From: Lingula anatina
Taxonomy: Eukaryota; Animalia; Brachiopoda
Reading direction: 5' to 3'
Length of the DNA stretch: 64,000 bases
Assembly (NCBI GenBank): GCA_051362555.1
Contig: CM120641.1
Coordinates: 49,172,401-49,236,400, forward strand
The translations under genes were made by a program, and so were the position numbers. Of this stretch, positions 1 through 62,561 are shown piece after piece (the stretch's first letter is position 1; the number at the start of each line of letters is the position of its first letter). The notes beneath the pieces were generated by a model. That model saw only the letters and a list, made by a program, of their open reading frames with translations, did no database searches and was not told the DNA's origin.

Positions 1-3000
1 AACATTGCTAAGAAACATCTCCAGCCAGTGCCATGGTTTATTGATAAGATTATCCAGGTTTGTCACTTGTAGCATTGTCATGAAAACAGCTTTCCAAAAA
101 TGTAACTGAGGATAGATGTATACTTCTATTCCAAATTTTATCAGTGGTTTGCCATTCAGATGCATTTACCCATTTTAAAAATTGGACTAAATTCTGTTAA
201 CTGTGGCAGAGATTTTTAAAGAATGGCAGTATTTTATACTTGTATGTCTTTCTAAAAAAATTCTTTGTTAATCCTTAGGTCTATGAAATGATCCTTGTGC
301 GTCATGGTCTGATGATAGTTGGTGAGCCTCTTGGAGGGAAGACGTGTTCCTACCAGGTGCTGGCAGATGCCCTCTCTGACCTCCATGCTGCTGGGATGAT
401 GGAAGAGAACAAAGTGATGTACCGCATCATCAACCCTAAAGCTATCACCATGGGACAGCTGTATGGATGCTTTGACCCTGTGTCACATGAGTGGTCTGAT
501 GGTAAGATGATGACTTCAACTTTCTTTATTACCACACTTCTACTTAACTAAAAAAACTTAAAGTGTCTAGTTCCTGTTAAATTGATTTAAGGTATGAACA
601 TGTTTAATATCAGTGGGACTGAAAACAATGAGAGCTGTATGTGTCTTTTCTCAGGTGTTCTTGCCAACACATTCAGAGAGTTTGCAGTGAACCCTAGTGA
701 TGACAGGAAGTGGATTCTGTTTGACGGTCCTGTAGACGCTGTCTGGATTGAGAACATGAATACAGTACTGGATGACAATAAAAAGGTGGGTAACTGACAT
801 ATATTGACATATGTATACTGACACAACACAAGAAGACATGAGCACAAGTAACACAATATGATTGAGAACATGAACACAGCACTGGATGAGAATAAGAAGG
901 TGGGTAACTAACATATACTGACAAAACACAAGAGCAAATGCATCCAAATGATTACAATATCACATCAAACACATTTTCTTACTTCCTTTCAGTTATGTCT
1001 AATGAGTGGTGAGATCATTCAGATAATTACAATATCACATCAAACACATTTTCTTACTTCCTTTCAGTTATGTCTAATGAGTGGTGAGATCATTCAGATA
1101 ATTACAATATCACATCTAACACATTGTCTTCCTTCCTTTCAGTTATGTCTAATGAGTGGTGAGATCATTCAGATAATTACAATATCACATCTAACACATT
1201 GTCTTCCTTCCTTTCAGTTATGTCTAATGAGTGGTGAGATCATACAGATGAGTAACACCATGAACCTGATATTTGAGCCAGCAGACCTGGAGCAGGCGTC
1301 TCCAGCCACAGTCAGCAGGTGTGGAATGATCTACCTGGAACCTCATCAGCTGGGATGGAAGCCCTCTAAGCAGTCTTATATGGAGCATGATCTCCCTAAG
1401 AACCTGACAGCTGATGAGTCTGGGATGGTGAATGATTTGTTTGAGTGGCTGCTGGACCCCTGTCTGGAGTTCCTGAGACATGAGTGCAAGTTCTACATCA
1501 ATACATCCCAGATCCACCTGGCCCGCTCCATGATGAGGCTGTACACCTGTCTTCTGGATGAGATAGCTCTGTCTGGTACTGAGGGACAGGAACAGTTAAC
1601 TAGCCAACAGGTAAAAGGATATTTTCACGCCAAAACTGTGACATCAGTTTTGATTTCTGAAAAAAAAAAAGGAATTATGTTTGGATTGCAAGGGTTTAAC
1701 TGATGTTTTAAAAACATTGACCAAGAATAAAACTTCCACATAATCTATGATTTTATGTTAATCAAATAATTAATGAGAAATCTCTGATAATCTGTGTGTT
1801 TCAGATCACCCTGTGGCTCCAGGGGTTGTTTTTGTTTGCCCTGGTCTGTAAGATAATTAACAATCTCTGATAATCTGTGTGTTTCAGATCACCCTGTGGC
1901 TCCAGGGATTGTTTTTGTTTGCCCTGGTCTGTAAGATAATTAACAATCTCTGATAATCTGTGTGTTTCAGATCACCCTGTGGCTCCAGGGGTTGTTTTTG
2001 TTTGCCCTGGTCTGGACTATTGGAGGGACTTTGACTGGAGACAGCAGGAAGAAGTTTGATGTCTACTTTAGAAACCTGATCAGTGGCAGTGATGAAGCTC
2101 ACCCTAAACCAAAGAGTGTCAAGATCACTAAGGTATGGAAATACACATTGTTTATATTGCCAAGATTTGCTTAGACATAAAGTTAAGGTCCACAAGGTAT
2201 TGGCCTCAGTACTGTTAAGAGCACCATTTAGTCTAATACTGTAAAGACCATCAAACAAAATAAAATAGTCATGTCATGAAGTACCCAAATAAACAGATAG
2301 TTAAGTTATTATAACCAACCAAACTAAGTGAATGAAATGACTTTTGAATAAATTGGAACAGAATGGTTGCAATTCTCTCTTTTAAAAATGATGCCCCAAT
2401 TTGTTTTGTAGAACAACTCTTTCCCAGAGCGTGGCACCATCTTTGACTTTTTCTTTGAGAAACGTGCCAGTGGTATGTGGATAGACTGGCTGGACACACT
2501 AGATAAAGGACTGCTCACTGTGCCTCCTGATGCTAATGTAAGTATCTACACACTGTCACAGGCTCACAGCTAACACACTGTCACACTTAACACACTGTCA
2601 TTGCTAAAACACTGTCACACTCAACATACTGTCAGTGCTAAAACACTGTCACAGCTTACACACTGTCATAGCTAACACAATGTCACACTCAACACACTGT
2701 CACACCTAACACACTGTCACAACTAACACACAATTAACACACTGTCTCAGCTAACACATTAAACTGACTGTATGTTTTACAGTGTCTTATCTGTTCTCTG
2801 TAGACCTGTATGTCATTTGAAATGCTGTGAAAAAATACACAATTCAAGTCACATCATCTAGTTGTATATATATAATACACATGACTTAGGCCATATCTGG
2901 CTACTGAAATGATCTATATTCCAGGTCAGTGAGCTTATCATCCACACTGCTGACACAGCTCGCCAGAAGTTTTTCCTGAACACTTACCTTCACCATCAGA

Positions 3001-6000
3001 TCCCAATGTTGTTTGTGGGTCCTACAGGAACAGGGAAGTCTGCCATTACACAGAGCCACCTGGTCAGCATGCCTAAGGAAAAGTAAGTCAACCACTGGGG
3101 ATATTATGCTGTTTATCACAGTCAAGTAAAATCCAAGTCATGGTCCTTGTAAATAGTGTCTTTGTAGTCATGAGACACAATATTAATTGATTCTCTTCAT
3201 CTTAATGTATTGGAAAAGTGCACAGATGCATGATAACTCCTTATGTGTATATTTATTTATGTAGCATGTATGATACAGTATAAGTCTGTGTGTGTTGGTA
3301 TTATATACAATGTATCATATGACATCCTGTGTGTATGATACAGTATATGTCTGTGTGTGTTGGTGTGTATGATATACAATGTATCAAATGACATCCTGTG
3401 TGTATGATACAGTATATGTCTGTGTGTGTTGGTGTGTATGATATACAGTGTATCAAATGACATCCTGTGTGTATGATACAGTATATGTCTGTGTGTGTTG
3501 GTGTGTATGATATACAATGTATCATATGACATCCTGTGTGTATGATACAGTATATGTCTGTGTGTGTTGATGTGTATGATATACAATGTATCATATGACA
3601 GCCTGTGTATTATATTATTTACTTGATGTTTTTCAGGTACATTCCCAACTGTATGAACTTCTCAGCCCGCACCTCTGCCAATCAGACCCAGGACATCATT
3701 ATGTCCAAACTAGACAGGTATGGAAGCAAGTGCTACTAAACGTTGTCCTTAATGTAACATCACCATTGACATCATCATATCAACAGGTGTAACGTTATAT
3801 CAAAATAATAGTACAAACAGCTAATGATGCTGTATTTCACTCTAGGCGAAGGAAGGGTGTATTTGGTCCTCCCATGAACAAGAAGTGTATAGTGTTTGTG
3901 GATGATCTGAACATGCCAGCCAAGGAGAAGTATGGAGCTCAGCCACCTATAGAACTGCTGCGGCAGTGGATAGATCATGGTCACTGGTATGATGTCAAGG
4001 ATACAACTAAACTCTTCCTCACTGATGTGGTAAGTGGTGTGGTAGGAAAAACACCTGACACACTGTCACACCTGACACATTGTCACACCTGACACACTGC
4101 CACACCTGACATACTGTCACACCTGTCGCAATTTCACACCTGACACACTGTCACACCTGACACATTGTCACACCTGACACATTGTCACACCTGACACATT
4201 GTCACACATAACACATTGAGACACCTGCCACATGCTACAAATCATCAATTCACTTAGACATCACTGATAAACTACCAAGAGAAGAACTTGAATTTTTCCT
4301 TACTGATGTAAAAATTTGTTTGGTAGTATTGATATATTTCTATTAAACATTATATGCACCTTCCTTTCCTTTTATGTTGTTCTGGTGGAGACAAAACATC
4401 TGAATAACTCATATATTTCTGTATATTTCTTCAGCTGCTTGTGTCTCATATTCTACATTACGTTTTTGTGAAGACAAAACCTCTGAATAACTCGTATATC
4501 TGTATCTATTTATTTTCAGCTGTTTGTGTCTGCTATGGGTCCCCCAGGTGGAGGAAGAAATGACATCAGCAGTCGGTTCACACGCCACCTGAACATCATC
4601 TCCATCGACGAGTTTGATGACACCACCATGACCAGGATCTTCACCTCCATTGTGGACTGGCACTTTGCCAAGGGGTTTGAGGCCAGTTTCACCAGAGTTG
4701 GCAAGGTAACCCATCTTTAGAGGATTATAGATTGAATCTTTTATTTACAGATATTGTGATCGTTATTTCACATTCCAGAAAAAGTTTCACACACTATATA
4801 TTTTAAAATTACATATTTATTTATCCTTTTAGTTCAGTGAGCAATAGAGAATATGGTATATGGAATAATTTTATTATAATCTATGGCAGACAGGTGGATA
4901 AATAAGCTGGTAAGTGAGAGATATCTGTGTTAGTTAACTAACCTGTATGCTTGGCGTGTTCCAGATGATGGTAGCAGCCACTATGGGGGTGTACAAGGAG
5001 GCCATCACACACTTCTTACCAACTCCTTCCAAGAGTCACTACGTGTTCAACCTGCGTGATTTCTCACGTGTCATACGTGGTGTGCTGCTCATACCATCAA
5101 CGCACATGCAGGATACAGACAAGCTCATGCGCCTGTGGGTGCACGAGGTCTATCGTGTGTTTTATGACCGTCTCATTGACAGCGAAGACAGGTGAGTCAC
5201 GGAAATGTTAACAGTTGGCAAATCATCTTACTGGCAATTTTTTCTTATTTTGAACAATTATTATGAAAATAATATTTAATATGTTTTATGCGGAAGGCAG
5301 ATTAATGAGAATTTTAACACTTCTATATACAGAGTGCTGCAGTGAAGAAGATATATATGCTAATAATTTGATAAAAAGGGGAATTTCTCTTCTGATAATT
5401 TTACTGTTGACATTTGCTCTGTCATCAGAAGCAGTTTATGTCTCCATTTTCTTCAGGCTGACTTTCTTCAACATTGTGAAGACCACCTGTCAGGACTACC
5501 TGAAAGTCAGTGTGGACAAAATCTTAAGCCACCTGTCACCCTCTGGCAAGGTGATAGATGACCACATCCGTAGCTTGTTCTTTGGAGACTACATGGATGA
5601 GCAGAATAAGGTGTATGATGAGGTGACTGACCTCAAGGAGCTCACAAGTACTATAGAGGGGTAAGAGAACAATGTGCGATGTGGTGACTGACTTCAAAGA
5701 GCTGACATGTACTTTACGAGGGTATATGGAACAGGCAATCAGTTATTAGTGACATTTGTTAGGTCAGCTCATGGTGTATCTGATGAGCAAGCTGTTGTCT
5801 GTTATTGATGTTGTCATTTGGTTGTTTTCAGTTCATTATTGTTTTAACACTACTGTCCACATGTATACTGCTGTTTCTCAGTTTTCTCAGCATGGGACAT
5901 TTCCCAGGTTATACTCCAAACACATCTTGTGTAAATGTTATGATATCTCACAATATTTTTCATATGTTGTATCAGCAATTGTGTTTGTTAAAGTGTCTAC

Positions 6001-9000
6001 AGTGTCACTGTCCACAGTGTTAATGTGAAAACAGTGTCACTGTCCACAGTGTTAATGTGAAAACAGTGTCACTGTCCATGGTGTCTGTATCCAGTGAACA
6101 CCTGGTGACACACCTGTCCAGCACTGTCCTCTCTCCCTCACCTGCACCTCCCATTTCAGCTACCTGGATGACTACAACTCCATCAGTAAGGCTCCCATGC
6201 ACCTGGTCATGTTTAAGTTTGCCATTGAACACATATCCCGTGTCGCACGTGTACTCAAGCAGGATAACGGGCATGCACTTCTTGTTGGTAAGTTACACAT
6301 AGTAGAAATGTTTTATATGCTGTCTTTTTATTTTGGATTATATGAACTATCCTTGAAACAATTGTCATTCATGTAAATTATTTTAAGGGATAACTTTGTT
6401 ACAACCTTCAAACGTTGCCATGGTTTTCAGAGTTCAGTTGGCCTAGTAATGTGGTTAATGGTGTGTTAGATGTGTGACAAGTGTGATATTGTACTAGATG
6501 TGACAAATGTGACAGATATGAATGAGTCAGTTGTGCCAGTTAGGACAGTATATTGATATAACTCTCTCTGTACACTAGGTATTGGAGGCAGTGGTCGCCA
6601 GAGTGCAGCTAAGCTGGCCACAGCCATGGCAGAGTATGACATGTTCATGATTGAAATCACCAAGAACTACAGCAGAAATGACTGGAGAGATGACTTGAAA
6701 AAGGTACCTGGCTGATAACATCTTTTTAATTGTCTATTGTATTTCCTGCGTACATTAAAGCTTCATTAGTAATTATATAACAACATACAGTTATCAATTA
6801 GCCAGGGACAGGGTCCTTAATTAGATGCCATTCTGGCAGTGATCAGTGTGTGTTGTCTTTCAGCTCCTCCTGAAGGCAGGCGGGGACGGCAAACCCACAG
6901 TGTTCCTGTTTGCTGATACTCAGATCAAAGATGAATCCTTCATGGAGGACATTAGTATGATCCTGAACACAGGGGATGTACCCAACCTGTACCCCTCTGA
7001 TGAGAAAGCTGAGATCATAGAGAAAATGCAGACAGTGGCCAGAAATGAGGGCAAGAAGATGGATGCTACTCCTCTGGCCATGTACAACTACTTCATAGAC
7101 AGAGTGAAACAGAACCTTCACATTGTGCTGGCCATGAGCCCCATAGGAGACGCCTTTAGAAACAGACTGAGGATGTTTCCTTCTCTCATTAATTGCTGCA
7201 CCATTGATTGGTTCCAGGTAGGTAGAACTGTGTGTTAGCTGTGACAGTGTGTTAAATATGACAGTATGTTAGCTGTGACATTGTGTTAAATACGACAGTG
7301 TGTTAGATGTGACATTGTGTTAAATATGACAGTGTGTTAGCTGTGACAGTGTGTTAAATATGACAGTATGTTAGCTGTGACAGTGTGTTAAATATGACAG
7401 TATTTTAGGTGTGACTGTCCTTTATGTGTGACAGTGTGTTGCATGTAACAGTATCTTAAATGTGACAGTGTGTTAGACAGACAGTGTGTTAGATGCGACA
7501 GTAGTCTAAAAAATATAACAATTGTTGTATATTCCAGGCTTGGCCAGAAGATGCTCTAGAGATGGTGTGGTGCTATGTTATATAAGAGAATGTGTTATAT
7601 GTGACAGTGCACTAGAAAATATAACAATTGTTGTATATTCCAGGCCTGGCCAGAAGATGCTCTAGAGATGGTGTGGTGCTATGTTATATAAGAGAATGTG
7701 TTATATGTGACAGTGCACTAGAAAATATAACAATTGTTGTATATTCCAGGCCTGGCCAGAAGATGCCCTAGAGATGGTGTGGTGCTATGTTATATAAGAG
7801 AATGTGTTATATGTTACAGTGATCTAGAAAATATAACAATTGTTGTATATTCCAGGCTTGGCCAGAAGATGCCCTAGAGATGGTGGCTAACAAGTTCCTG
7901 GAGGAGGTAGATCTAGAGGACAGTGTGAGGACCAGTGTGGTCTTCATGTGTAAATATTTCCATGAAAGTGTCCGAAAACTCTCAGAAAGGTAACCACTGC
8001 TTTTTTCTGCTTCATGGAAGGCAGCATTGTTTTATATTTGCTTCTTAGTAGAGATGTGTGAAATCATCTGCATTTTTCATTTCATGTTTTCTTGCATGCT
8101 GAACTGTATATAAATCAATGTAACAGTTGAATATATAACAATTTTCCTGTTATTTTCCTCAGATTTATGGACGTTCTCCGCAGACACAACTATGTAACAC
8201 CCACCTCTTACCTAGAGCTGATATTGACCTTTAAGAAACTGCTGGGGGTAAAACAGGAAGAGATCTTAACACTGAAGAACAGATACATTGTGGGTCTTGA
8301 AAAGTTGGAGTTTGCTGCCTCGCAGGTAGGGTATTTAGAATGCATATCTTTATTGTTTGCACATCTGTGGAAATATTGAGAGTTTACAGTTTTATATATA
8401 GGTAGCAATAGTAAATCTAACATATTCTAGAACAGTTCCAGTGCCCATCTTCAGCCTTTATAATGGCATATTTTGATATGATGAGCTTTTGGTGTTATTC
8501 TTGTCCATATGTTTCCTAGGTCTCAGTGATGCAGGTAGAACTATAATGATATGTCAAGTTTTTTGGTGATATTCTTGTCCATATGTTTCCTAGGTCTCAG
8601 TGATGCAGGTAGAACTACGTGAGCTGCAGCCAGAGCTTGTCAAAACATCAGAGGAAACTGACAAACTGATGACAAAGATTGAACAGGAGACAGTGGATGT
8701 GGAGGCCAAGAAAGAGGTGAGTGACAGAAGAAAGAAGAGGGTTGATAAGAATAAGAATTTGTATTTAAGCTAATGACTTCAGTTTCTCAACAGATTTTGG
8801 ATGCTACAACATATAAATATTTGACCTTTTATGACTTAAAGTAATTGATTTAAAATAATGTACTTTTTTTTAGTTCTTTTTAATTCAACATTTTCTCCTA
8901 ACCTTATTGTTGTTGATTTAGAATGAATTGATAACCACACTGTACACATTGCACTTTTTGTAGAATGTTGCTGTTGACTTGGAGAGTATTGATAACCATA

Positions 9001-12000
9001 ATGTAAACATTTCACTATTTCTAGATTGTTGCAGCTGATGAGGCTGTTGACTTGGAGAGTATTGATAACCATAATGTAAACATTTCACTATTTCTAGATT
9101 GTTGCAGCTGATGAGGCTGTTGCTAACAAAGCAGCTGCAGCAGCTCAAGCCATCAAAGATGATTGTGAGAGTGACCTTGCTGAGGCCATCCCTGCCCTGG
9201 AGGCCTCCATCCAGGCCCTGAACACACTGAAACCTGCAGATATCAGCATGGTCAAAGCCATGAAGGTGAGGCTGGAGATAGAAAAATGGGGAGTAGGAAT
9301 AGGGAATAGAATATGGAGCCAAGGTCTACAGTGGGGCTGTAGTTTGAAACAAGTTCACAAATTCCTTAATATCTTTCGAGGTCCACACAGTCTTCATCAA
9401 TTTTTATGACTGTAGTCAATTTTGGGATGGAGTCAGTGCCTAAGGCTTTCCCATGTGTATCTAAAGATCCCCTTTGTGTATATACAAACCTGTCTCCCAG
9501 AATTCTAGATCATATGATATATTTCCAGAACCCTCCCGCTGCAGTCAAACTGGTCATGGAGTCGGTGTGTGTGATGCTGGGAGTGAAGGCTGAGAGAAAG
9601 CCAGACCCTGGAGGCTCAGGAAAGATGATCCAAGATTTCTGGGGACCCTCTCAGAAACTGCTGGGTGACATGAAGTTCCTGGATAGACTGAAGACCTATG
9701 ATAAGGACAACATTCCACCAGCCATCATGAAGAATATCAGAGAAACGTAAGCTTTAGAAGAATATTAGTGTAACAAGATATAAATAAAAGATCAATTGAA
9801 AGTGAGTTTAACTTAATGAATTCAAAAACAGTGAAAAAAATGTAGGTATTGTATATGTGTATTGTGTTGTATTACAGCTATATCAGCAACAAGGAGTTTG
9901 ACCCCAAGTTAATCAAGCAGGCATCCACAGCCTGTGAGGGTCTGTGTCGCTGGGTGAAAGCCATGGATGTCTATGACAGGGTGGCCAAAGTGGTGGCACC
10001 AAAGAAGGCCAAACTGGCTGAAGCCGAGGGCGAGCTGGCAGTTCAGATGGAAAAACTCAACACCAAGAGAGCACAGCTTAAAGAGGTAGGGTCAGAGGGC
10101 ATTAGATTGAACAGTATTTCTTACCCTGTACAACCAATACAATCTGTATTGCTGTGGGATGAACTGTATGTCTCACCAACACAATCCACTGTCACACCCA
10201 ACACAATACACTGTCACACCCCACACAATCTAAATGATTGTGGGTTTAACAAAACTGTAAATAATAAATGTAAAACATGTTAACCCTTAATAGTATCAGC
10301 ATAAATATTGTATACAGTGTCATTTTAGTTTTAAGTATTCCCAGGAGTGTTAAGTTGTAATATGTAAAGCACTAATCGAGGAATACTTTCCTTCCAGGTG
10401 GTAGACAAGCTTCAGGCTCTGAATGATGAACTGGAGGCAATGACACAGAAGAAGAAGGAGCTGGAAGACAATATAGATCTCTGTGAGAAGAAACTGGACA
10501 GAGCAGAGAAGCTGATTGGTGGTCTTGGTGGTGAAAAGACTCGGTGGACAGAAAATGCCCGTGTTCTTGGCGCCACCTATATTAATATCACAGGTGATGT
10601 ACTGCTGAGTAGTGCGGTGGTGGCATATCTGGGGGCATTCACTGTGGACTTCAGACAGGTAACACTGCAACCAGTTCTGCATATACTTACTTTTTTTAAG
10701 TGAGATGAGTATTGTATTAACCAAGACAAGTAATATTGTGTGAGATCAGACAAGTTGTACTTGGCATTGTGTTAGATGAGACTTGTTGTACTTGACATTG
10801 TGTTAGATGAGACAAAGCACTGCACTGAATGTGTCTGTTGCAGGATGTGACCAAGGATTGGCATGACCACTGTGTGGAGAAGGAAATCCCATGTTCTCCA
10901 AACTTTTCTCTTAATGTCACTCTTGGGGAGCCGGTCAAGATCAGGGCCTGGAACATTGCTGGCCTTCCAGTGGACAGCTTTAGTGTGGACAATGGTATCA
11001 TTGTGGCCAACTCCCGCCGCTGGCCACTCATGATAGATCCACAAGGTACTGCTCTGTTCTTACTTTTTGCAATGTGGACCAAGGTTTTAAATAGCTAACA
11101 CACATACAGATGTCTGTGACAGGATTATCTGCAGTTTTCTATGGCTTATTGTAACACATTCATCTCTATCAGTTCATGGAAACAATCCCAATCACTGTGT
11201 ATGGTTCTGATATGGTTGTTACTGTATGTTTTCTTCAGGGCAAGCCAACAAGTGGGTGAAGAATATGGAGAGGGAAAACAATATGAAAATCATCAAATTG
11301 TCAGATCCTGGCTATGTGAGAACCTTGGAGAATTCCATCCAGTTTGGACACCCAGTTCTACTGGAGAATATAGGTGTGTTCTGGATAACTAATGCAGTAG
11401 AATACAATAGGCTTGATAACTAATATAGAAGAATACAATAGGCTGGATAACTGATATAGTAGAATACAATAGGCTGGATAACTGATGTAGTAGAATACAA
11501 TAGGCTGGATAACTGATGTAGTAGAATACAATAGGCTGGATAACTGATGTAGTAGAATACAATAGGCTGGATAACTGATGTAGTAGAATACAATAGGCTG
11601 GATAACTAATATAGTAGAATAAAATAGGCTGGATAACTAATATAGTAGAATACAATAGGCTGGATAACTGATGTAGTAGAATACAATAGGCTGGATAACT
11701 GATGTAGTAGAATACAATAGGCTGGATAACTGATGTAGTAGAATACAATAGGCAGTACAGCTGGTGATCAGATGACAATGCTATTAAATATTAGTGTTCT
11801 ATGCTGCAAACCTGAATATCTCCAACATATAGGTAATGTATTATTACCATGGGTCACTTTGTTAGTATCCTTGTTCTCAGTGCACCCTAGCAGTAGTTTA
11901 ACCGTTTCTAAGTGCTGCCATCTATTGTGTATTTCCAGGAGAGGAGCTGGATCCCATCCTTGAGCCAGTCTTGCAGAAGCTGACCTTTAAAGTTGGTGGT

Positions 12001-15000
12001 GTAGAGATGATGAGACTGGGAGAGAACATGGTGGAGTACTCTCAGGGCTTCAAGTTCTACATGACCACCAGGCTGAGGAACCCACACTATATGCCTGAAG
12101 TCTCAGTCAAGGTACAGCTCAGTGTGAACACTGTTTGTTTTCATTGAAATGATGCTACATATGAGGGGAATTTTATAAGCATTTTATTTTATCTACAAGG
12201 TAGATATTCATGTGATTGTCTGTGTTTTACAGGTGTGCTTACTGAACTTCATGATCACTCCTAAGGGTCTGGAGGACCAGCTGCTGGGTATTGTGGCTGC
12301 TAAGGAGAAGCCTGAGCTGGAAGAGAAGAAAAATCAGCTTGTCTTGGAGAGTGCTGCCAACAAAAAGCAGCTCAAGGAAATTGAGGACAAAATTTTGGAA
12401 GTGCTTTCTAGTTCAGAGGTATGTAGGTCAAGCAGTAGAAAAAGAGCACTTGTTTTATAAGTTGAGATTTTTCATGACACGTTTTTTTTACCTTAACTCA
12501 AATGGCAGACCCAATCTTTGCTAAAAACAGTGAAGTGAACACAGTGAATATGTTCACATTTGTACTGATTTCAGGGCAACATTCTGGAAGATGAGACAGC
12601 CATCAAGATCCTGTCCTCCTCCAAGACTCTCTCTGAGGAGATCTCAGCCAAGCAGGAGATAGCTAATGTCACAGAGAAAGAGATAGATGAGACAAGGAGC
12701 GGGTATCTCCCAGTGGCTGTTCACTCCTCCATACTGTTCTTCTGCATATCAGAGCTGGCCAACATAGAACCTATGTACCAGTACTCACTGACCTGGTTCA
12801 TCAACTTATACCTACAGGTAAGAGCTGGTTCTACTGGTACAATACAACATAGAACCTATGTACCAGTACTCACTGACCTTATTTGAGTAGCTATAAATGC
12901 ATACTGTCGTTATTCTAAAAATGACAATGTTTATTCTTTCAGTCTATCATCAATAGTGAACCAGCGTCTGAGTTGGAGGAAAGAATTCATAACCTCAATG
13001 ACCACTTCACCAACAGTATATATCGTAATGTCTGCCGTTCACTGTTTGAGAAGGACAAGCTACTCTTTTCCTTTGTGCTCAGCATTGGCATTCTGAATGG
13101 AAGGTACAGTGAACATACCTACTTGGTTTGTGTAATGGTGCTGCTGTGCAATAAAACAAACATATACATGGTTTATAACTCCTGGCTACAATGGCAAGAA
13201 ATAATGTCTTTGTGACTGGTAATCAATTGTATATATTATACTGCAACCTGACTTGATGTCTCATTTAAATTTTCAGTGGTAAAATAGATGACCAAGTATG
13301 GCGTTTCCTGCTGACTGGTGGTGTTGGCATGGATAACCCTCACCCCAATCCTGCCCCAGAGTGGCTCACAGAGAAATCATGGTCAGAGATTGTCAGGGCA
13401 TCAAATCTACCCAATCTACAGGGCCTCTTTGAACGTAAGTAGTAGATATGTGACATGATGAAATTACGTATTCTGCAGAAGAATGTGATGTATTATATAT
13501 GATTCATGAGAGTTGTAACTGATTGTCTTGATGGTTAATTTCACAATAGTAATTAGATCTTGCATCATTTCAGATGTGCGTGACAACATTGGTGAGTGGA
13601 AGAAGATGTATGACTCCCCCAACCCCCATGAGTTCAAGTATCCATCCCCCTATGACACCCTAGGGGGTCTGGACAAGATGGTGGTCCTCAGGGTGTTACG
13701 TCCAGATAAGATTGTCCCTGCTGTTCAGGAGTTCATTGTGGACAATCTGGGCCAGTCTTATATAGAGCCTCCGACCTTTGACCTGGCCGGGTCATTTGCT
13801 GACTCCCATTGCTGTGCCCCCCTGATCTTTGTGCTGTCCCCAGGGGCGGACCCCATGGCTGCTCTGCTGAAGTATGGGGAGGACAGAGGCTACTCCACGG
13901 GGAACAATAAGATTCAGACCATTTCTTTGGGACAAGGACAGGTAAGACAGAGGAAACTTCAGAGTATGCTGTGAGACTTCTGATACTATATTCCTTGGTC
14001 ATAGTGAATGTATATTTAAAAAAGCAACAACTGTCCTTCAACAACTACCTCTTCTGTGGTCTATTTAACTTTGTTAAGTCTCTGTGGTTTAAAATATTTT
14101 ATTACTTCCGTAGGGTCCCATTGCTGCCAACATGATAGACAATGCCATCAAGGATGGGAGCTGGGTTGTCTTGCAGAACTGCCATCTAGCAACTAGTTGG
14201 ATGCCCAAACTGGAGAAGATTTGTGAAGAGGTACTAATGCAACTTAAATTCAAAACAAAGCACTTGATTAAACAGTGGTGCACAATTGTAATGTTTCTTG
14301 GTAATTTTCAGAAAGTCATCTCTTTAAGTTATTATACATTTTGTGGTTACTACATGTATGAATTAAATTATCATTCTTCCAGACCATAATTCCTGAGAGC
14401 ACTAACCCAGATTTCCGTCTTTGGTTGACCAGTTACCCCTCCAATGACTTCCCTGTGGCCATATTACAAAATGGTGAGTAGAAGTCTATCAGTAAGTTAT
14501 TGTGCTGGCATTATAGCATGGTGGAAATATAAATGAAAAAATCCCTTGTTATTTGACTCTTTCTGTTGTGTTTTTAGGTGTAAGGACACATTAATGTCTT
14601 GATATTTATGCTGTCTGTGTTGTGGTTTCTAGGTGTAAAGACACATTAATGTTTTGATATTTATACTGTCTGTGTTGTGGTTTCTGGGTGTAAAGACACA
14701 TTAATGTTTTGATATTTATGCTGTCTGTGTTGTGGTTTCTAGGTGTAAAGACACATTAATGTTTTGATATTTAAGCTGTCTGTGTTGTGGTTTCTGGGTG
14801 TAAAGACACATTAATGTTTTGATATTTATGCTGTCTGTGTTGTGGTTTCCAGGTGTAAAGACACATTAATGTTTTGATATTTATACTGTCTGTGTTGTGG
14901 TTTCCAGGTGTAAAGATGACCAATGAGCCTCCTAAAGGATTGAGAGCTAACCTTCTGAGGTCATACCTCAATGACCCAATCTCTGACCCTGCCTTCTTCA

Positions 15001-17933: not shown

Positions 17934-17997
<64 letters not shown>

Positions 17998-23118: not shown

Positions 23119-23189
<71 letters not shown>

Positions 23190-25092: not shown

Positions 25093-25439
25093 TAAACGAT
25101 AAACGCTCCGAGGTACTCATGTTTATGCTTTGCAACGAGAAGTATAAAAACCGATATTGTATATGTCTGGGGGGGGGGGGGGAGTTTTTAATCACTAAAA
25201 ATGAATATGCATAAAATGCACGAAAAACCTCATTTTCAGAATCTTGATGATCATAATCCCTGCCAGTCTCCTTAACCTAGCTCTCGTTATCTCAGTTCCA
25301 CATTTTGACCCCGTAGATTTTTTGCACTGCACAGTGACTTGGGTTAATCTCACCTCATTTACAACACGGGACTAAGTTAGTCCTAAGAAATAGTATCATG
25401 TGCTCTGTATGTAGTTCTTACACAACAGAATGCGGCTCA

Positions 25440-26850: not shown

Positions 26851-26902
<52 letters not shown>

Positions 26903-39898: not shown

Positions 39899-40629
39899 TC
39901 CAAGCTGAGTATACAAATAACATCACATTTCTGCATGTTGCACATTTGTTACACTTAAATCAAAGTATCCAGATCCATTTTATAAAGCACAGGGTAAAAC
40001 TATGTTCCTTGTGTCAGAACTAGATCACGGACACTACTTTGGCATGTTGGAGACTGGGAGTTCCTACATTATATTATTATGAAGACCAGCGTAAGGACTT
40101 CCCAAGTTGGACGTTTTATATTTAATATCAAAGATATTGAAATTAAAGCAGTCTTAGAAGGCTACAGCAGAATAAATTTTACCTCCACATTCAAGAACTG
40201 CCATTGTTTTTGTGAAATGAAAACCAACATTCAAATTGTTGTCCAACATTTTTTTTATTAATTTGCAAATCTTCAATTAACCTCCCATTATATTTTGCAA
40301 ATCAATAATTTTGCAGCATGGAATATTTCATTTTCATATCCCATGGAGCTTTCTGTTACTTCAGGCCAACACCTTTTGCAAATCAACTTCATGGCATCTT
40401 GTGCTTTCCACCAAATGGGATACAGACTTCACGAACCCAAGAGCACAGGAGGGAATTCGCTGGCACAAGATCTACAATACAGTGCATTTAGATGTGTTAA
40501 AACAATTCGTTCATATAAAAAACTCCATACCAACAATTTTCAGATCATTCTTCCCCCCCCCCCCTTGTCAGAATAAAAGATCGCCACCTCCGTCTCAATC
40601 ACTAGCAACACCTTCCATGTTTTAAAAAC

Positions 40630-43392: not shown

Positions 43393-43441
<49 letters not shown>

Positions 43442-44716: not shown

Positions 44717-52566
<7,850 letters not shown>

Positions 52567-52908: not shown

Positions 52909-55900
52909 ATGTTCATTTCTTCGCTCTTCAGCGGAATTACAAAGTACTTTGTCAGCCAGACAAGAAGTCTGGTAAGACTGTCAAAGGATAAAGTCGGTGT
53001 AATAGGTGTCCCTTCCTGCAAAGGACAGGTAAGCAACGATTGCGAGGACTTTTTGTAGGAACGCAGTTTCTTGTATTTGAAGTCGAGTAAGGCGTGAAAA
53101 AAAAGGGAAACGTACAGTGTTAGAAAGAAAGAGCAAATAAGTTTTATAGCACTTGATTTGAGCGTCGTCTGATTATCTTTGTGAGTGTATTTACACTGGT
53201 TATTTGGTTTCTGTTTCATGTTTTTTATGGTTATTTGGTTTCTGATTCATCATGTGTTTTATGGTTATTTCCGCGGGTTTCTGAATCATCATGTTTTTTA
53301 TCTTAGTTCAAGGTTCACAGGATGTATATACAGTACAGGGCTTAGTGTGTTAAGTTTACTGCAATTTATCTTTGACACAGATTATATTTACTTAGATGCT
53401 ATTGATAAATGGTTTCACTGCAGGACAGCTATATGGCATTGTATCATTTTTATAATTTACATGGATCAGAAGATTCATTAAAGTATTTAATATATGTAAC
53501 AATTGCCCAAAGTGTGTCCAGTGAACCCATTGATAAACATTATTTTTAATACATTATATTAAATGCATTATATTATATTATATTATATTATATTATATTA
53601 TATTATATTATATTATATTATATTATATTATATTATATTATATTAAATACATCATATAAAATGCATTATGTATAATTTTATTTTATTTGGTTTTTAATTC
53701 CAGAGTGCAGGCGGAGTACAACATGGACCCAAGGCACTAAGACAGGCGGGCATTATTGACAAACTGACTCAGTTAGGTATGAAATAAGTCAATATGTCTT
53801 CAAATGATCCCATATCAAATTTATTGTGTAGATTGAGAACCATGTCATGATGTGTTATTAAAATATCAGAGAGACTATAATTAAAAAGAAGAATATTTGT
53901 TTGTGCTTTGTTGACCATCAGTGATTGTAGAGAATTTTAATTCTTTAAAAAGAAAAAGTTATTGAATAGGGTTTAATATATTTTACATTAACTGGCTAGA
54001 ATTAACAGTTCATTGGGAAAACCAACAAAGAATCATTTAGATAATTATTTAAAGGTTGTATGTTTTGAGCCTGATAATATTGAAAAAATTTTAAGAGTTT
54101 GCTGCTATTGCCCGAAGCTAAGTTTGTAAACTTACCCAGAGAGATAACAATCTTCTCGGGTGCAAAATGGGTGACAAAAGGAAAAAAAACAACAACAACA
54201 ACAAGGAAGATGTAAACCAACGTCTCTGGAACCTACATGTATGTGTTAACTTCATCTTTGTTTTACTTAATCTAGGTGTAGAGGTTTATGATTATGGTGA
54301 CTTGGTATTTGAACAGTTTGATGATGACACACCTATTCTGGGTCTGAAGAACCCTAAGAACATTGGACTGGCAGCTAAAAAGGTAAAACTATGTGTACCT
54401 GTATTTTGTGATTAATTCTTTGTAATTTACATTGACTGAGCTTATGTATTATATGAATGCAGTTATCAGTGAGACAGGGAGATTACTGTGCTATAACATA
54501 TGTTGATTTCTTTCTTGATGTAAACAATTAATAATTCTAGTTTACTTTGATTGAACTGAAGGACATGATATATTGTTTTGCATGGTATGAGTTTGAATAA
54601 TGTTATTCATATCTCTAAGACGGTTGTGATAACATATATTACAATTGTTATATGTGTATGTGTGGAGATCAGCATATATAACAATATGTGTGTTTTTGTG
54701 TGCGTATGTGTAGAGAACAGGGCACTAACATATTACAATCTATCAGATATCAGATCAGGTGTCCAGAGTGATCAAGGATGACCAGATAGCGCTGACCCTG
54801 GGGGGTGACCACAGTCTCTCCATTGGGACCATCCACGGTCATGCTGCTGCAGAGAAGAACATATGTCTTGTGTGGGTGGACGCACACGCTGACATCAATA
54901 CCCCACTCACCTCACCATCAGGCAATGTCCACGGGATGGCACTGTCCTTCCTGGTCAAAGAACTGAAGGAGTACATACCACAAATCCCTCACTTTGAATG
55001 GATTAAACCTTGGTAAGTTAGACACACAGTAACCCACATGTTATGAAAGCAGAGTATGATTTGGATAATTTGGATAATTCTCATATACACAGAAATTTTA
55101 GTGAAGTTGAAAGGAGTACACGTACCCCCCCCCCCCCCCCCCAAGTAGTCCTGTTCAAACTTACCACCCTTTTGTTTGACCCCTCCTGACTTTTTTTGTG
55201 AGGAAAAGGTCCACTCAGGGTAAAATTTGATCTAGGAACATGAAGATTTTGTGATTAAAGTTCCATTTTTTCCAATAAAGAACCCCCTCTTTAAAATTAC
55301 TGACCTGATACAAGATGTTATCAGGGGCCACAGTAATGAAAAAAAAAATGTAATTTATATTTTTTAATGTTTGTTACATGAGGTGGTATTTATTCAATCA
55401 GTGGAAGTATTTGGATGATAACATTCACATGTGGGAGGCTAAGATGTATAAGTAGCTGTAAATAATATTTCACATCTAGCAGTTCAAATTTTAATTTCCT
55501 TTGTTTCAAGCTATTAATCCATTAGAGCTTGATGACATGGAGTTACTGGAAGTGCCCGCTACAGTGTCTCTTATTATATATTATATATAAGATATTCTGA
55601 TTGAAAGATACCCAGTATTAGATTTTCTCACAAAAATGAACAAAATTGGGTCTAAACAGAACGGATATCACATGTAGTGGAAGAAAACTAATTGGAAATT
55701 AGAAATGATTCATGTGCTCTGTACAGGAAGAATGTTAGTTGGATCTTTACAGAAATGATACTTATGCTGTGAGCAGGAAGAATGTTAATTGGATCACTAC
55801 AGAAATCATATGTACTCTGTGAATGATTATGAATAGGATCAATATAAAATATATACATGTATTTACATAAAACTGACCTTGTTCACCATCTTCATGTACT

Positions 55901-58900
55901 GTTACAGAACTTGGGTCAAACCAAGATGAAGAAAAGCATCTGAACAAATTGATTGATAATAAATAAATGAAATCACTATGTTGTATATATTGGGTGGCTC
56001 AGAAGAAAAAAAAAATATTGCTAATTTCAAATTTAAATAACTTCAACAATTTAAATAACTTCAACAATTTGAAGTTATTGCATTGAAATTTGAGGTATTT
56101 AAGGAAAATTGCATTTTTAATAATTGCTGTTAATTTCATGACACTTCCTTTCTTAGTTTTTGCACTGAAAAAATTAAAATGTTGAGTCAAAAAATGCTGT
56201 GCCCGTCTATGTGATTTTTGATAGATGTCAGCTAGGTCAGAGATTATTCTTATTTTACAGGGCACTATAGCTGTCATATTAATTTACTGCAGTAATTTCA
56301 GTGCTTATTTCTTTATTTCAGTATTAGTGCCAAGGACATAGCTTACATTGGACTGAGGGATTTAGATCCAGGAGAACTGTAAGTGAAACAGGTTGTGCTG
56401 AACTTGTAAATAGTAAAATCGTGTCCTGAACTTGTCCAGATTTAGTGAAGCTGAATTGCCTTTTTAACTTACTCTACGCAAAACTCAATCCAAAGATTCC
56501 TCAGTTCACACCCACGGGGTAAACATAGGGTTGTACATAGAAAAGATAAGTACACATAATGGCCAGTGATATGGTTTATTAGTCAAACATTGGGTGTAAA
56601 TACATGATGTGAGGTTTTTAGCCAAAAACACTCCATATCTTTTGGAACCTGTATCTGTCTTCTTAATTCTCCCCCCCCCCCCCCCCCAATAACTTGGTCA
56701 AGAACCTGATCCCTGTTGCATATTCAGCTTAATACACTAATAGTAAGTCACACACTTGTTATATTTGGGGGTTTAAACAAAAATTTTAATTACAACATGG
56801 TAATTTACTTTCATTCACCATTACACAAGAAGTCCCATAGTTATACTTTCAAGAACCCTGCAGCTACATTGAGTCACTTCATGTTATTTAAGGACTGTAC
56901 TGATAAAATCTTAATGTCAACCATGGGGATAAAAAATTCTAAATTATTTAAAATTACATAGTTAATTACTTAAACTCAGCATTGCACAAGAAGTCACAAA
57001 ACTACGTACACATTGAAGAACTTTTCAGTGACATTTAGTCCCTCTATGTTACATAATTACTGAAATTGTATAATCTGCCCATGACAAGGTGTGGTTGCTT
57101 TTCTTTTAAAGAAATATTAATTGTTTATCCTGAGAATAAGGTGATGCAGGCTTGAGTAATTGTGTAGAAATATTTTCTCCTAATATGATTTTGAAAAATG
57201 TGTATGTGGCAATTTTGAAAGAAGAGTCAAAATCCTCCATTTTTCTGTCAGCAACTATATAACACCATATTCATTTATAATATTTTGTATTTTTAGGTGG
57301 ATTGTGCGTAACATGGGTATAAGCTGCTTCACGATGCATGAAGTAGACAGATATGGTATTGACATGGTGCTGAGGATGTCCATGCAAGCCATCAATCCAC
57401 AGTAAGTAGACAGATATGGTATTGACATGGTGCTGAGGATGTCCAAGTTAGCCATCAATCCACAGTAAGTATATAGATATGGTATTGACATGGTGCTGAG
57501 GATGTCCAAGTTAGCCATCAATCCACAGTAAGTAGACAGATATGGTATTGACATGGTACTGAGGATGTCCAAGTTAGCCATCAATCCACAGTAAGTTGAC
57601 AGATATGGTATTGACATGGTGCTGAGGATGTCCATGCAAGCCATCAATCCACAGTAAGTAGACAGATATGGTATTGACATGGTGCTGAGGATGTCCAAGT
57701 TAGCCATCAATCCACAATAAGTAGACAGATATGGTATTGACATGGTGCTGAGGATGTCCATGCAAGCCATCAATCCACAGTAAGTAGACAGATATGGTAT
57801 TGACATGGTGCTGAGGATATCCATGCAAGCCACCAAGTTAGCCATCAATCCACAGTAAGTAGACAGATATGGTATTGACATGGTGCTGAGGATGTCCAAG
57901 TTAGCCATCAATCCACAGTAAGTAGACAGATATGGTATTGACATGGTGCTGAGGATGTCCAAGTTAGCCATCAATCCACAGTAAGTAGACAGATATGGTA
58001 TTGACATGGTGCTGAGGATGTCCAAGTTAGCCATCAATCCACAGTAAGTAGACAGATATGGTATTGACATGGTGCTGAGGATGTCCAAGTTAGCCATCAA
58101 TCCACAGTAAGTAGACAGATATGGTATTGGCATGGTGCTGAGGATGTCCAAGTTAGCCATCAATCCACAGTAAGTAGACAGATATGGTATTGACATGGTG
58201 CTGAGGATGTCCATGCAAGCCATCAATCCACAGTAAGTAGACAGATATGGTATTGACATGGTGCTGAGGATGTCCAAGTTAGCCATCAATCCACAGTAAG
58301 TAGACAGATATGGTATTGACATGGTGCTGAGGATGTCCAAGTTAGCCATCAATCCACAGTTAGTAGACAGATATGGTATTGACATGGTGCTGAGGATGTC
58401 CAAGTTAGCCATCAATCCACAGTAAGTAGACAGATATGGTATTGACATGGTACTGAGGATGTCCAAGTTAGCCATCAATCCACAGTAAGTAGACAGATAT
58501 GGTATTGACATGGTGCTGAGGATGTCCATGCAAGCCATCAATCCACAGTAAGTAGACAGATATGGTATTGACATGGTGCTGAGGATGTCCATGCAAGCCA
58601 TCAATCCACAGTAAGTAGACAGATATGGTATTGACATGGTTCTGAGGATGTCCATGGTAGCCATCAATCCATAGTAAGTAGACAGATATGGTATTGACAT
58701 GGTGCTGAGGATGTCCATGTTAGCCATCAATCCATAGTAAGTAGACAGATATGGTATTGACATGGTGCTGAGGATGTCCAAGTTAGCCATCAATCCACAG
58801 TAAGTAGACAGATATGGTATTGACATGGTGCTGAGGATGTCCAAGTTAGCCATCAATCCACAGTAAGTAGACAGATATGGTATTGACATGGTGCTGAGGA

Positions 58901-61900
58901 TGTCCAAGTTAGCCATCAATCCACAGTAAGTAGACAGATATGGTATTGACATGGTGCTGAGGATGTCCAAGTTAGCCATCAATCCACAGTAAGTAGACAG
59001 ATATGGTATTGACATGGTGCTGAGGATGTCCATGCAAGCCATCAATCCACAGTAAGTAGACAGATATGGTATTGACATGGTGCTGAGGATGTCCATGGTA
59101 GCCATCAATCCATAGTAAGTAGACAGATATTTCTGTCAGCAGCTATATATCACCATATGGATCAGCCCTTGGAGAACATACCTGCAAACATCCAGGTCAC
59201 CACATTGATTTTGACAGCCTGAAAGTAATAGACAGGGAAAACTGGACATTCCAAAGAAAAACAGCAGAAGCTGTACACATCAGGACCAAACAACCAGGCC
59301 TGAACAGACAGGGGGGGTATGATTTACCAGCTATCTACCTCACGGTGCTTCAGAGGGATGCAGAGGAGCCCCGGGGGGAAGGTGTAACAGTTACAACACA
59401 AGGCCAGTGATTAGGGGCAATTGACCTGGATTTTCATTCCAGGTGAAATGACCCTAGTCATTTACTCCCTGATGATGGTGACTGACAGTCACAGAAATAT
59501 TGGAGGTAAAACCTACATATTTTATAAGCTCTTGATAAAAAGAAAAACAATAATTTAAATTGATACATACAGAGCTAATGAAACTCTTCTCTCATAGACA
59601 GATATGGTATTGACATGGTACTGAGGATGTCTAAGTTAGCCATCAATCCACAGTAAGTAGACAGATATGGTATTGACGTGGTACTGAGGATGTCTAAGTT
59701 AGCCATCAATCCACAGTAAGTAGACAGATATGGTATTGACATGGTGCTGAGGATGTCCATGGTAGCCATCAATCCACAGTAAGTAGACAGATATGGTATT
59801 GACATGGTACTGAGGATGTCCATGGTAGCCATCAATCCTCAGTAAGTAGACAGATATGGTATTGACATGGTTCTGAGGATGTCCATGGTAGCCATCAATC
59901 CACAGTAAGTATAGACAGATATGGTATTGACATGGTGCTGAGGATGTCCATGGTAGCCATCAATCCTCAGTAAGTAGACAGATATGGTATTGACATGGTT
60001 CTGAGGATATCCATGCAAGCCATCAATCCACAGTAAGTAGACAGATATGGTATTGACATGGTTCTGAGGATATCCATGCAAGCCATCAATCCATAGTAAG
60101 TAGACAGATATGGTATTGACATGGTACTGAGGATGTCCATGCAAGCCATCAATCCACAGTAAGTCACCATGCACATTGTATAAGAACAGTTGTCAGTATT
60201 GCAGTAGGTGTACTGACCAAGCACATCCACTGCACCTCATTTACATAATGACCTCAATTTGCATAACTGAACACTTTTTGGAAGTCACAGTCTTCAGTGA
60301 GCGCAGTGTGTCAGTCCTTAGTGAGTCTCACAGAGATAAGTGACAGAATCTGAATTTAGTGGAAAGAAGCATATTATGGTGGGTGAAATATTTATGTATA
60401 TTATTTATTAAATGTATTTGTTTACAATGTTCTAATGATGTAAATGCTAGTTTGGCCATGTAGTGACTAAAATTCATTAAGTGAACTGGTGGCAATGCAC
60501 TTCAGTTCAGTTTGGAAGGAAATATATTTCATAGCTCTGAATAATATCTATAGATAGTAAAAAAGGTGTTTGAAATATGAGTTAATTTGTATGCTAAACA
60601 ATTAGTTTTAATTTGTGGTTTTTTGTTTTTAATTCATGGCAGTGTCTGACATTTAGGAAAAATAAAGGATTATGCCCATTGAACTTTGGCTTCTTTATTT
60701 TGTGGCCCTGATGTCAGTGATGAGCTACACGTTGAATTTCAGTATATTTTAGGTAGGCTACCCCCACAACACATTCATATTCACACACACACACACGCAC
60801 ACACACCATGTACACTTAAGTATATTCATGCACATACATATATTCATGCACATGCTTTCATACATTGATTCCGTGAAGTCCCCCACCTCACACATGAGTG
60901 TACATATTCCACATGACATGTATCTGTTCTATTTCCAGTGGAGACAGACCTATCCACCTGAGTTTTGATGTGGACTCTCTAGATCCCAGAATATCTGCTG
61001 CCACAGGGACCCCAGGTGATAATAACACTAATATACAGAAGACTAATTGTTCTCTTTACTAACATCCTGCAAGGCCACTGTAAAGCAAGCACAGCTCTCT
61101 GCCATATAACAATGTGCTGTTAAGATTTTTCCTTTCTCATCTTTAAAAAATTAACTTCAAAAGTTTGGTCTGTATTGTCTTGGACTGCGGACACATTGGT
61201 CTCTATAACTGGGCTCATGTATAGCTACTTGCTGGAAGAATTGGGGACATTCCATACATACTTACATAAACTCTATACTGCTATATCTAACAAAATGCAA
61301 TAAATTTATATCCTTCAAAATGAAGTGTTTTCCAGTATGTAAATAAAGTATAACAGATGTAGATGATAGAAATAGTTTTTTTTTAATTTTCAATTTTACA
61401 GTTTGTTTCAATTTGCAATTTTGATGCAAAATTGATTTGATCTCCTTTAATTTCTTGGTTTTTTTCCTTTTCAGTTCCTGGTGGGTTGTCAGTTAGAGAA
61501 GGCATCTATATTGCTGAGGAGCTGGCAGCTACAGGTAAGACACTGAACTTTTGTTGCTACTTCTTTATTATTCCACACTACAAACTATACGTTGTACATT
61601 GCTGAGGAGCTGGCAGCTACAGGTAATACACTTAACTTTTGCTGCTACTTATTTATTATTCCACACTACAAACTGTACCTTGTACCAACTTTCCTACTCA
61701 AGTTAATGTCACATGTCACATGGTAATTATAAGTTGCTGCAGGCAGTACATTCAGTACAGTTGTTTTATTTCAAATTTTTTGAACATGCAAGTGCCAAAG
61801 ATCAAATGTTCATTTCTGTCCCCCAGGCTGTACAGCTCCACGTTTTTACCTCCATTTGTTTGTTTGTTCTTCATCAGCCTAACTCAAAAAGTTATGGATG

Positions 61901-62561
61901 GATTTTGATAAAATCCCCAGGATATGTCAACAATGGGCTAACTCAAAATTGATACAATTTTAGTGGTGATCCATTAATTTATTTATGGTTAATTATTTGT
62001 TATTTGTCCTGGTGGAAGTCTGCACTCTCTGCTTGGTTTTTTAGTTTTGTACATAATTTAAAATACTTTAGAAAACCGGTAAACTGACAGCATTTGACCT
62101 TGTTGAAGTGAGCCCTTTGCTAGGAACCAAAGAGGAGAGAGATCTTACAGTGTATGCTGTATATATGTTTATATTCTCAGGTTTATCACTTTGTGTGTTA
62201 TTTAATAAACTAGGTAAACTGACGGCAGTGGACCTTGTTGAAGTGAACCCTTTGCTAGGAACCAAAGAGGAGAGAGATCTTACAGTGTGTGCTGTATATA
62301 TGTTTATAATCTCAGGTTTATCACTTTGTGTTATTTAATATACCAGGTAAACTGACGGCAGTGGACCTTGTAGAGGTGAACCCTTTGCTAGGAACCAAAG
62401 AGGAGAGAGATCTTACAGTGTATGCTGCCACAGAGATTGCTAGGGCATGCTTTGGAAAGAAACGAGAGGGCAACATTCCCCCTGGCTACGTGCTGCCTAG
62501 ACCGGACACTACCACAGTGGCGTCCTCAGCTAAATACGGGGAGGAAGTGGAAAGACCATAG
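52909..62561 (+). CDS. ARG: Arginase with probable mitochondrial transit peptide; exons 52909-53028, 53704-53776, 54276-54382, 54747-55012, 56322-56378, 57297-57401, 60939-61015, 61475-61534, 62347-62561
   Basis: GVIGVPSCKGQ, GGDHSLSIG, DAHADINTPLTSPSGNVHGM, YIGLRDLDPGE, IHLSFDVDSLDP..ATGTPVPGG, DLVEVNP; the N-terminus lacks acidic residues and is S/R-rich. Confidence 0.95.
59159..59595 (+). mobile_element. Penelope-like retroelement 3' fragment
   Basis: Translates as SALGEHTCKHPGHHIDFDSLKVIDRENWTFQRKTAEAVHIRTKQPGLNRQGGYDLPAIY, resembling the C-terminal half of the PLE GIY-YIG endonuclease; followed by a hammerhead-like motif and an A-rich tail. Confidence 0.82.
59461..59510 (+). ncRNA. Minimal type I hammerhead ribozyme motif (PLE type), probably with one core-adjacent mutation
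   Basis: Stem I TTTACTCC..GGAGgTAAA, core CTGATGA (59469-59475), stem II GTGACT-GAC-AGTCAC, GAAA (59494-59497), palindromic AATATT; the base before GAAA is A rather than C. Confidence 0.7.
62072..62428 (+). repeat. About 134-bp x3 tandem repeat spanning the last arginase acceptor
   Basis: Copies of GTAAACTGAC..GAGAGATCTTACAGTGT follow CCG (62078), TAG (62213) and CAG (62346, functional). Confidence 0.93.

Follow-up and report, generated by a model that had tools for sequence, protein, structure and literature searches.

Tandem copies of exon–intron junctions in three neighbouring genes of the brachiopod Lingula anatina resemble amphioxus mirage minisatellites

Results

The DNA analysed here (the window) is a stretch of 64,000 nucleotides from Lingula anatina (assembly GCA_051362555.1, contig CM120641.1, positions 49,172,401 to 49,236,400 of the forward strand). 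In three of its genes, exon edges are copied into the adjacent introns, in arrays that we call mirages after similar minisatellites of amphioxus. The genes are as follows:

279..18439, plus strand: dynein heavy chain gene, 3' portion, starting upstream of the window; the 41 exons inside the window encode 2420 aa; open frame; Pfam AAA_8 and Dynein_C
20263..39900, plus strand: two SLC46-like MFS genes, taken as internal control; 18 junction ends without a clear mirage; CpG content higher
44717..52566, minus strand: MCM-family helicase gene, 16 exons; open frame; Pfam MCM
52909..62533, plus strand: arginase gene, 9 exons; open frame; Pfam match

The MCM-family gene at 44717..52566 is probably MCM5, judged by sequence likeness. 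On translation, hand-built models of the dynein, MCM5 and arginase genes have zero internal stops, and single exons of the dynein, SLC46-like, MCM and arginase genes match the expected Pfam families; RNA reads are present on dynein exons at low depth. The first SLC46-like exon shares 99% identity with a Lingula anatina protein. A sequence-only reading of the window had held that the intact protein is given by the copy contiguous with the full exon, which the open frames of the models bear out. The same open frames suggest correct splicing at the real sites.

That reading had counted about 20 junctions with copies of exon edge, splice site and adjacent intron. TRF recovers 11 of these arrays, with the units and at the places given, and a diagonal self-scan, in which 10 shuffles never rose above score 15, adds those at 785, 4519, 5660, 8593, 12817, 47216, 49477 and 50004. 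In a uniform test of the 144 intron-flanking junction ends in the five genes, exon edge and splice site were aligned to the adjacent intron and to 71 others. Twenty of the 144 ends score above the best non-adjacent intron, and 19 of these 20 had been listed. The remaining one, the exon 1 donor of an SLC46-like gene at 21130 (score 37 vs 27), is a TG-rich low-complexity match and doubtful as a mirage. The earlier count holds for 19 of its 20 junctions, which have an exon-edge copy in the adjacent intron, 18 of them with the splice site included. It fails at 11372, proposed as a donor array, where a 31-bp x12 array is wholly intronic and begins 7 nt inside the intron. At 12817, likewise proposed as a donor array, a 35-nt exon-edge copy is present, but it is exon-only and has no decoy donor. 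The dynein features, all on the plus strand, are:

746..923, plus: donor mirage at 785; offset 114; decoy GT at 900 intact
951..1249, plus: acceptor mirage at 1217; 75 bp x4 (TRF); three decoys in frame and stop-free
1779..2014, plus: acceptor mirage at 1970; 83 bp x3, each a 70-nt copy and a 13-nt spacer (TRF 83x2.8)
4385..4531, plus: decayed acceptor mirage at 4519; 85 bp x2 (diagonal self-scan)
5617..5723, plus: decayed donor mirage at 5660; 61 bp x2 (diagonal self-scan)
7485..7885, plus: acceptor mirage at 7855; 106 bp x4 (TRF 106x3.8)
8487..8617, plus: acceptor mirage at 8593; 74 bp x2 (diagonal self-scan)
8907..9122, plus: acceptor mirage at 9097; 73 bp x2, identical, with a 7-nt overlap; older third copy at 8963 (TRF 73x2.1)
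11381..11753, plus: intron-internal minisatellite, 31 bp x12, 7 nt past donor 11373; no junction copy
12760..12879, plus: exon-only echo of the exon ending at 12817; 35 nt, copy at 12845-12879, without decoy donor
14564..14916, plus: acceptor mirage at 14907; 55 bp x6.4 (TRF); AG kept in 4 of 6 decoys
16456..16639, plus: acceptor mirage at 16591; 86 bp x2 (TRF 86x2.1)

The MCM5 and arginase genes carry the following:

45399..45552, minus: acceptor mirage at 45443, MCM5; 77 bp x2 (TRF)
45890..46089, minus: donor mirage at 46049, MCM5; 81 bp x2 and a decayed third copy (TRF 81x2.1)
47177..47236, minus: decayed donor mirage at 47216, MCM5; 39 bp; nearest decoy without GT (self-scan)
49449..49536, minus: acceptor mirage at 49477, MCM5; 49 bp; nearest decoy without AG (self-scan)
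49982..50074, minus: decayed acceptor mirage at 50004, MCM5; 59 bp (self-scan)
57341..60164, plus: donor mirage at 57401, arginase; 63 bp x ~37, 36 decoys, 35 with GT (TRF 63x28.2 and 9.0)
61510..61685, plus: donor mirage at 61534, arginase; 88 bp x2 (TRF)
62073..62427, plus: acceptor mirage at 62346, last exon of arginase; 133-135 bp x3 (TRF 135x2.7)

We find no TE or dispersed satellite family identity for the junction units. No exon edge scores above 29 in the non-adjacent introns of the window, in line with the earlier view that the units are locus-specific, and in the 600-12950 region junction-unit DNA has a depth of ~1-2.5x single copy, while a separate 17-bp dispersed family exceeds 300x. 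In the arginase gene, a stop codon directly follows the donor in the 57401 array, and the 63-bp array is interrupted by a 464-nt insert at 59131-59594, for which a Pfam search gave zero matches.

The same five genes also carry 15 intron-internal duplications (units of at least 30 bp) and 9 short-period arrays, all outside the earlier list.

The copies range from identical to heavily decayed, and many decoys keep their splice signal, both as proposed from the sequence. AG or GT is retained in 58 of 64 decoys, namely 35 of 36 in the arginase 57401 array and 23 of 28 elsewhere; the 64 are 65 rows minus one spurious 15/22 match, and the 5660 decoy and the third copy at 46049 lie below the cut-off. 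Many decoys score the same as the real splice site; AG or GT is lost in older ones. The outermost decoy is more diverged at two loci, 14907 (15/22, inner decoys 19-21) and 62346 (17/22, inner decoys 20). Acceptor and donor-side events number 12 and 7, with no significant bias (P 0.36). At 1217 three decoys are in frame without stops, and their use would insert 25-aa repeats into dynein; most other decoys would bring a stop, and an intact arginase decoy at 62213 precedes the last exon. In two same-species RNA runs, 898 and 218 reads fell on 600-12950, many of them on the dispersed 17-bp repeat, and at this depth of ~1-5x no splice joint is found among the 15 RNA joints listed. Extra copies, whose lengths are hand-curated, account for 7-31% of intron length across the three genes. 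This fits the suggested route to intron growth; the exon extension and intron gain suggested alongside it are not shown by the arrays.

Two public DNA runs from two studies (X3 and X4) were compared with 600-12950 only, and what follows rests on the contig pieces listed. Among these, an X4 contig spans 1214-1808 and an X3 contig begins at 9093. The ends 1214, 1808 and 9093 fall exactly on the 30-mer with which repetition stops or starts in the 75-, 83- and 73-bp arrays, and since an assembly graph must break there if the repeat is present, the coincidence argues that the tested arrays are genuine. That the arrays are assembly artefacts is the least probable reading we considered. The copy numbers of near-identical arrays do rest on the assembly, and the other runs cover this one region; however, contig ends fall exactly at these three positions, long contigs pass through the decayed 5660 decoy and the 12817 echo, and the copies have their own substitutions, many pairs being 60-95% alike.

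The runs also differ from one another. An X3 contig joins 1778 to 1945 directly, omitting two 83-bp units, which indicates a single-copy allele at 1970 in X3; the 83-bp array is thus absent from X3, and the X4 contig break fits its presence there. Within the introns, X3 and X4 both omit 341 nt (11 x 31) of the 31x12 array, and X4 omits 64 nt over a 32-bp array. At least one junction array therefore varies between samples, as intronic neighbours do, with one junction locus seen varying. Haplotype divergence reaches ~8% on some contigs.

We then compared junction copies with random placement. Event lists and unit sizes were hand-curated from TRF and self-scan output; the counts exclude intergenic arrays as well as dispersed repeats with long offsets (245, 377-551 nt). 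Among 34 duplications with units of at least 30 bp in the five genes, 19 touch a junction vs 10.4 expected (odds 3.6, 1.7-7.8; P 0.0007), so the raw counts show an excess over random placement in the window, to which the test was confined. In dynein, 11 of 12 units of at least 50 bp span a junction vs 6.4 expected, and in MCM5 and arginase alone the count is 8 of 12 vs 2.6. Units below 39 bp gave 0 junction cases in 13, with 1.6 expected. Six non-junction arrays begin within 35 nt of a donor. Introns collapsed by removal of extra copies have medians of 175-550 bp across genes (dynein, 175 bp), and about half of the tolerable placements of a 75-bp unit in dynein would span a junction.

The identity of decoy to original is 94% (521/553) in exon parts and 79% (620/786) in intron parts, a contrast partly built in, as the exon-side boundary was placed where identity ends. 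Because intron parts are less identical, wholly intronic copies drop from view sooner, which weakens the raw excess. With a twofold persistence weight, the 19 of 34 compare with 14.9 expected (P 0.08). When only duplications with well-kept intron parts are counted, the five genes give 13 of 28 vs 8.1 (P 0.024; odds 2.2-2.7 and P 0.024-0.065 over subsets), and the three named genes 13 of 21 vs 7.3 (P 0.007; odds 3.1-4.2 and P 0.007-0.025 over subsets). The excess is weakened further by the choice of this window, for this very pattern, from a very large scan. Dynein relatives from metagenome contigs (the first 31 of 80 loci) show 1 echo in 118 approximate junction ends vs 9 in 80 here (P 0.001). 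This control is weak, since arrays collapse in short-read assemblies and many of the loci are protists or transcripts. Taken together, a moderate junction excess inside this selected window is likely.

Exonic CpG observed/expected is 0.19-0.40 in dynein, MCM5 and arginase vs ~0.6 in the SLC46-like pair. Clear mirages occur at 19 of 126 junction ends in the three CpG-depleted genes vs 0 of 18 in the pair (P 0.13), so that CpG depletion accompanies mirages here as a hint only.

Discussion

The Lingula arrays agree point by point with the published description of amphioxus mirages, as far as the available text of PMC3087553 and PMC3902484 goes, and we identify them with mirages on these grounds. 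Our preferred reading, to which we give somewhat better than an even chance, is that they are mirage minisatellites: short DNA duplications, tolerated because the spliceosome keeps using the full-exon site. Short duplications would arise in DNA via end-joining of staggered breaks or slippage, and arrays would then expand or contract by unequal exchange. Duplications wholly in exons would be purged, leaving as exon-touching survivors those that straddle junctions; given such purging and introns as short as these (median 175-550 bp), chance alone places ~30% of survivors at junctions. Junction copies may also stay recognisable longer than intronic ones, since one copy is fixed by selection. Dedicated splice-site targeting is not required, and a modest exon-side bias is compatible with these data. 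Of the two origins put forward from the sequence, a splice-junction-targeted duplication process keeps moderate support inside the selected window only. The other, a high duplication rate tolerated through splice-site choice and NMD, fits best, except that NMD would miss the decoys at 1217 and 62213.

Exon sequence makes up between 0.14 and 0.94 of the unit, a spread indistinguishable from uniform (KS P 0.09, 18 events), which implies no fixed offset from the splice site. At the 10 array edges examined, overlaps of 7, 4 and 3 nt occur, three edges are near-blunt and four have spacers or decayed flanks. A search for a single breakpoint signature found overlaps of at least 4 nt in 2 of 10 arrays (3% chance each) and none common to all. 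Nor is there an excess of CpG at exonic breakpoints (2, 3 and 5 of 19 vs 1.4, 3.1 and 4.8 expected). In mammalian cells, breaks with 3' overhangs give rise to small tandem duplications (CST, Pol alpha-primase, NHEJ; PMC8355091, in the part available). These duplications are alike in being near or below 100 bp and head-to-tail; they differ in their host, and for Lingula such breaks are a candidate origin only.

The exon edges might instead be returned to the gene by RNA-templated insertion, from cDNA or a spliced transcript. Two observations would suit this: the 12817 echo holds exon sequence alone, and the copies have preserved their exon parts better than their intron parts. Yet in 18 of 19 copies the splice-site position or intron sequence is present. 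None of six donor decoys continues into the next exon's sequence, and after the 46049 decoy the start of the intron is repeated letter for letter. RNA-templated repair from spliced mRNA, as raised in the sequence-only reading, is thereby already largely refuted, and we consider RNA templating as a whole highly improbable; by sequence, a pre-mRNA template cannot be told from a DNA template.

A real mutational bias added to tolerated mirages is a more serious alternative, though we hold it to be less probable than not. Breakpoints would be 2-4x commoner in exons or exon edges, and junction copies would be their surviving shadow. Germline transcription, gene-body methylation with repair nicks, or nucleosome placement may cause such a bias, as may inter-homolog repair if it begins within a conserved exon and slips on meeting a divergent intron. 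The odds are 2.2-4.2 in all six age-controlled subsets, and the excess in MCM5 and arginase (8 of 12 vs 2.6) points the same way, as do the six non-junction arrays that start no more than 35 nt from a donor. Mirages are confined to the genes with exonic CpG observed/expected of 0.19-0.40 (vs ~0.6 in the SLC46-like pair), and haplotype differences of up to ~8% are found in a species with a published heterozygosity of 1.6% (PMC4595640, in the text available). On the other hand, this is a single stretch of genome selected for the pattern, 3 of the 6 age-controlled confidence intervals extend to 0.9, CpG is not favoured at exonic breakpoints, and units below 39 bp gave 0 junction cases of 13 (1.6 expected). 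We regard as slightly more doubtful still the general form of this bias, in which duplication breakpoints in polymorphic, gene-body-methylated marine invertebrates would be 2-4x commoner in germline-active exons and mirages would be the survivors.

On our preferred reading of tolerated duplications, splicing must pass over many intact decoys. In 12 of 19 cases the junction is an acceptor, and a transcript presents the decoy before the real site. Upstream-first scanning does not account for these cases; exon definition would have to favour the downstream 3' splice site, and NMD would be no more than a partial back-up. The in-frame, stop-free decoys at 1217 and the decoy at 62213 before the last exon show that NMD is not the whole safeguard. 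In donor arrays oriented scanning would let the upstream donor win, as it does in human F7, whose identical pseudo-donors further downstream can function yet stay silent (PMC1557585, in the part available). The arrays could also be functional, their decoys tuning splicing, supplying NMD transcripts or, at 1217, adding 25-aa repeats to the dynein motor. The 58 of 64 decoys with AG or GT, many scoring like the real site, and the three in-frame, stop-free decoys at 1217 would suit such a role. However, at least one array is absent from another sample, older decoys decay, intact sites are expected anyway in copies that are 93-100% identical, and amphioxus mirages produced no aberrant mRNA (PMC3087553, PMC3902484, in the parts available). 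We therefore consider function very unlikely.

If the general exon-biased process held, Lingula would carry segregating alleles, some with perfect decoy acceptors and others lacking them. One such decoy, in dynein, would be in frame and invisible to NMD, and these alleles would be a natural test of downstream 3' splice site choice in a wild population. The arrays extend mirages to brachiopods; they are dense, at 7-31% of intron length in a gene, vary between samples, and can mislead gene prediction and read mapping. Should an exon-side bias hold genome-wide, it would answer the amphioxus question of mirage origin and tie mutation spectrum to gene architecture.

The amphioxus Adh3 mirage was reportedly first described by Canestro in 2002. 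In amphioxus, mirage minisatellites are described for the globins BflGb6 and BflGb9, Adh3, troponin C and PGBD5, as locus-specific units of 10-160 bp that span an exon-intron boundary at donors and acceptors. Many, though not all, copies have AG or GT, copy number differs by haplotype and edge copies are more diverged (PMC3087553, PMC3902484, in the text available). An intron-gain model was previously proposed for them, and their origin was left open (available part of PMC3087553). Our literature search, which covered few subscription papers, found no brachiopod mirages and no genome-wide junction-enrichment test, and the available text of the Lingula genome paper holds no mirage-like statement (PMC4595640).

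Other systems are more distant. The 37-bp VNTR in intron 7 of human F7 (PMC1557585, available part), whose first unit spans the exon end, comes closest to the arginase 63-bp array, but it is a single donor locus, whereas 12 of the 19 Lingula arrays are at acceptors. Variable internal tandem repeats at exon-intron boundaries of human duplicated genes (PMC2812944) are alike in being tandem duplication near splice signals, and intron birth by tandem duplication (PMC3265369) likewise reshapes gene structure around splice signals; in the available text of both, these cases yield new introns or alternative transcripts, and the Lingula cases show neither. With amphioxus mirages the Lingula arrays share the position across the junction (18 arrays), locus-specific units of 39-135 bp, occurrence at 12 acceptors and on 7 donor sides, AG or GT in 58 of 64 decoys, length variation (one locus) and edge-copy divergence (two loci). 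They differ in their brachiopod host and in their number, 19 cases in 126 junction ends of three neighbouring genes, and they add presence and absence across samples, an in-frame, stop-free acceptor array and a measured local excess over random placement.

Repeated duplication at dynein exon junctions

The 75-bp acceptor array of the dynein heavy-chain gene lies inside an open frame (912-1703) that runs unbroken into the dynein exon. If its decoys, the copied splice sites, were used, the product would gain one to three extra 25-aa repeats without a stop. At the 9097 acceptor, an older, decayed copy (8907-8969) lies 5' of the young identical pair; therefore, this same junction has been duplicated at least twice. 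In the comparison set, a dynein relative on a metagenome contig (L001:1057-1551) showed a single weak exon-edge echo (score 32).

Divergence between haplotypes is very uneven. Compared with the window at 7940-8530, one contig from X3, a public DNA run, carried 26 substitutions plus 21 gap letters over 572 nt, including small, clustered intronic deletions, whereas another contig showed one difference in 427 nt.

Arrays outside junctions

By raw count, 6 of the 24 non-junction arrays begin within 35 nt 3' of a 5' splice site (at 2564, 4051, 7230, 11381, 17703 and 21165), and another three finish within 30 nt of an acceptor. A 17-bp minisatellite family, found in both orientations, forms four arrays in the window:

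2564-2731, 17-bp family array
4051-4233, 17-bp family array
7230-7502, 17-bp family array
10169-10230, 17-bp family array

Three of these four begin 12-26 nt downstream of a donor. Because DNA depth over the family in X3 reaches 28,742, compared with about 80, the family is dispersed genome-wide. Intergenic tandem arrays at 40748-43100, with units of 161 bp and about 355 bp, bear no relation to junctions.

Transposon-like elements and the SLC46-like pair

The two SLC46-like paralogues, in tandem at 20263-39900, have a CpG observed/expected ratio of about 0.6, compared with 0.1-0.4 in the flanking genes, a compositional contrast that suggests a methylation boundary. Between them lies a broken Tc1/mariner-like element:

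27963-29350, broken Tc1/mariner-like element
28797-29174, its match to DDE_3 (Pfam)

By eye, its termini resemble inverted repeats. The second paralogue has a 7.4-kb intron (31369-38730), full of apparent nested elements with long inverted ends.

The arginase donor array is itself interrupted by a 464-nt insert (59131-59594). The insert's 95-aa frame gave no Pfam match; it may resemble the terminal part of a Penelope-type (GIY-YIG) element.
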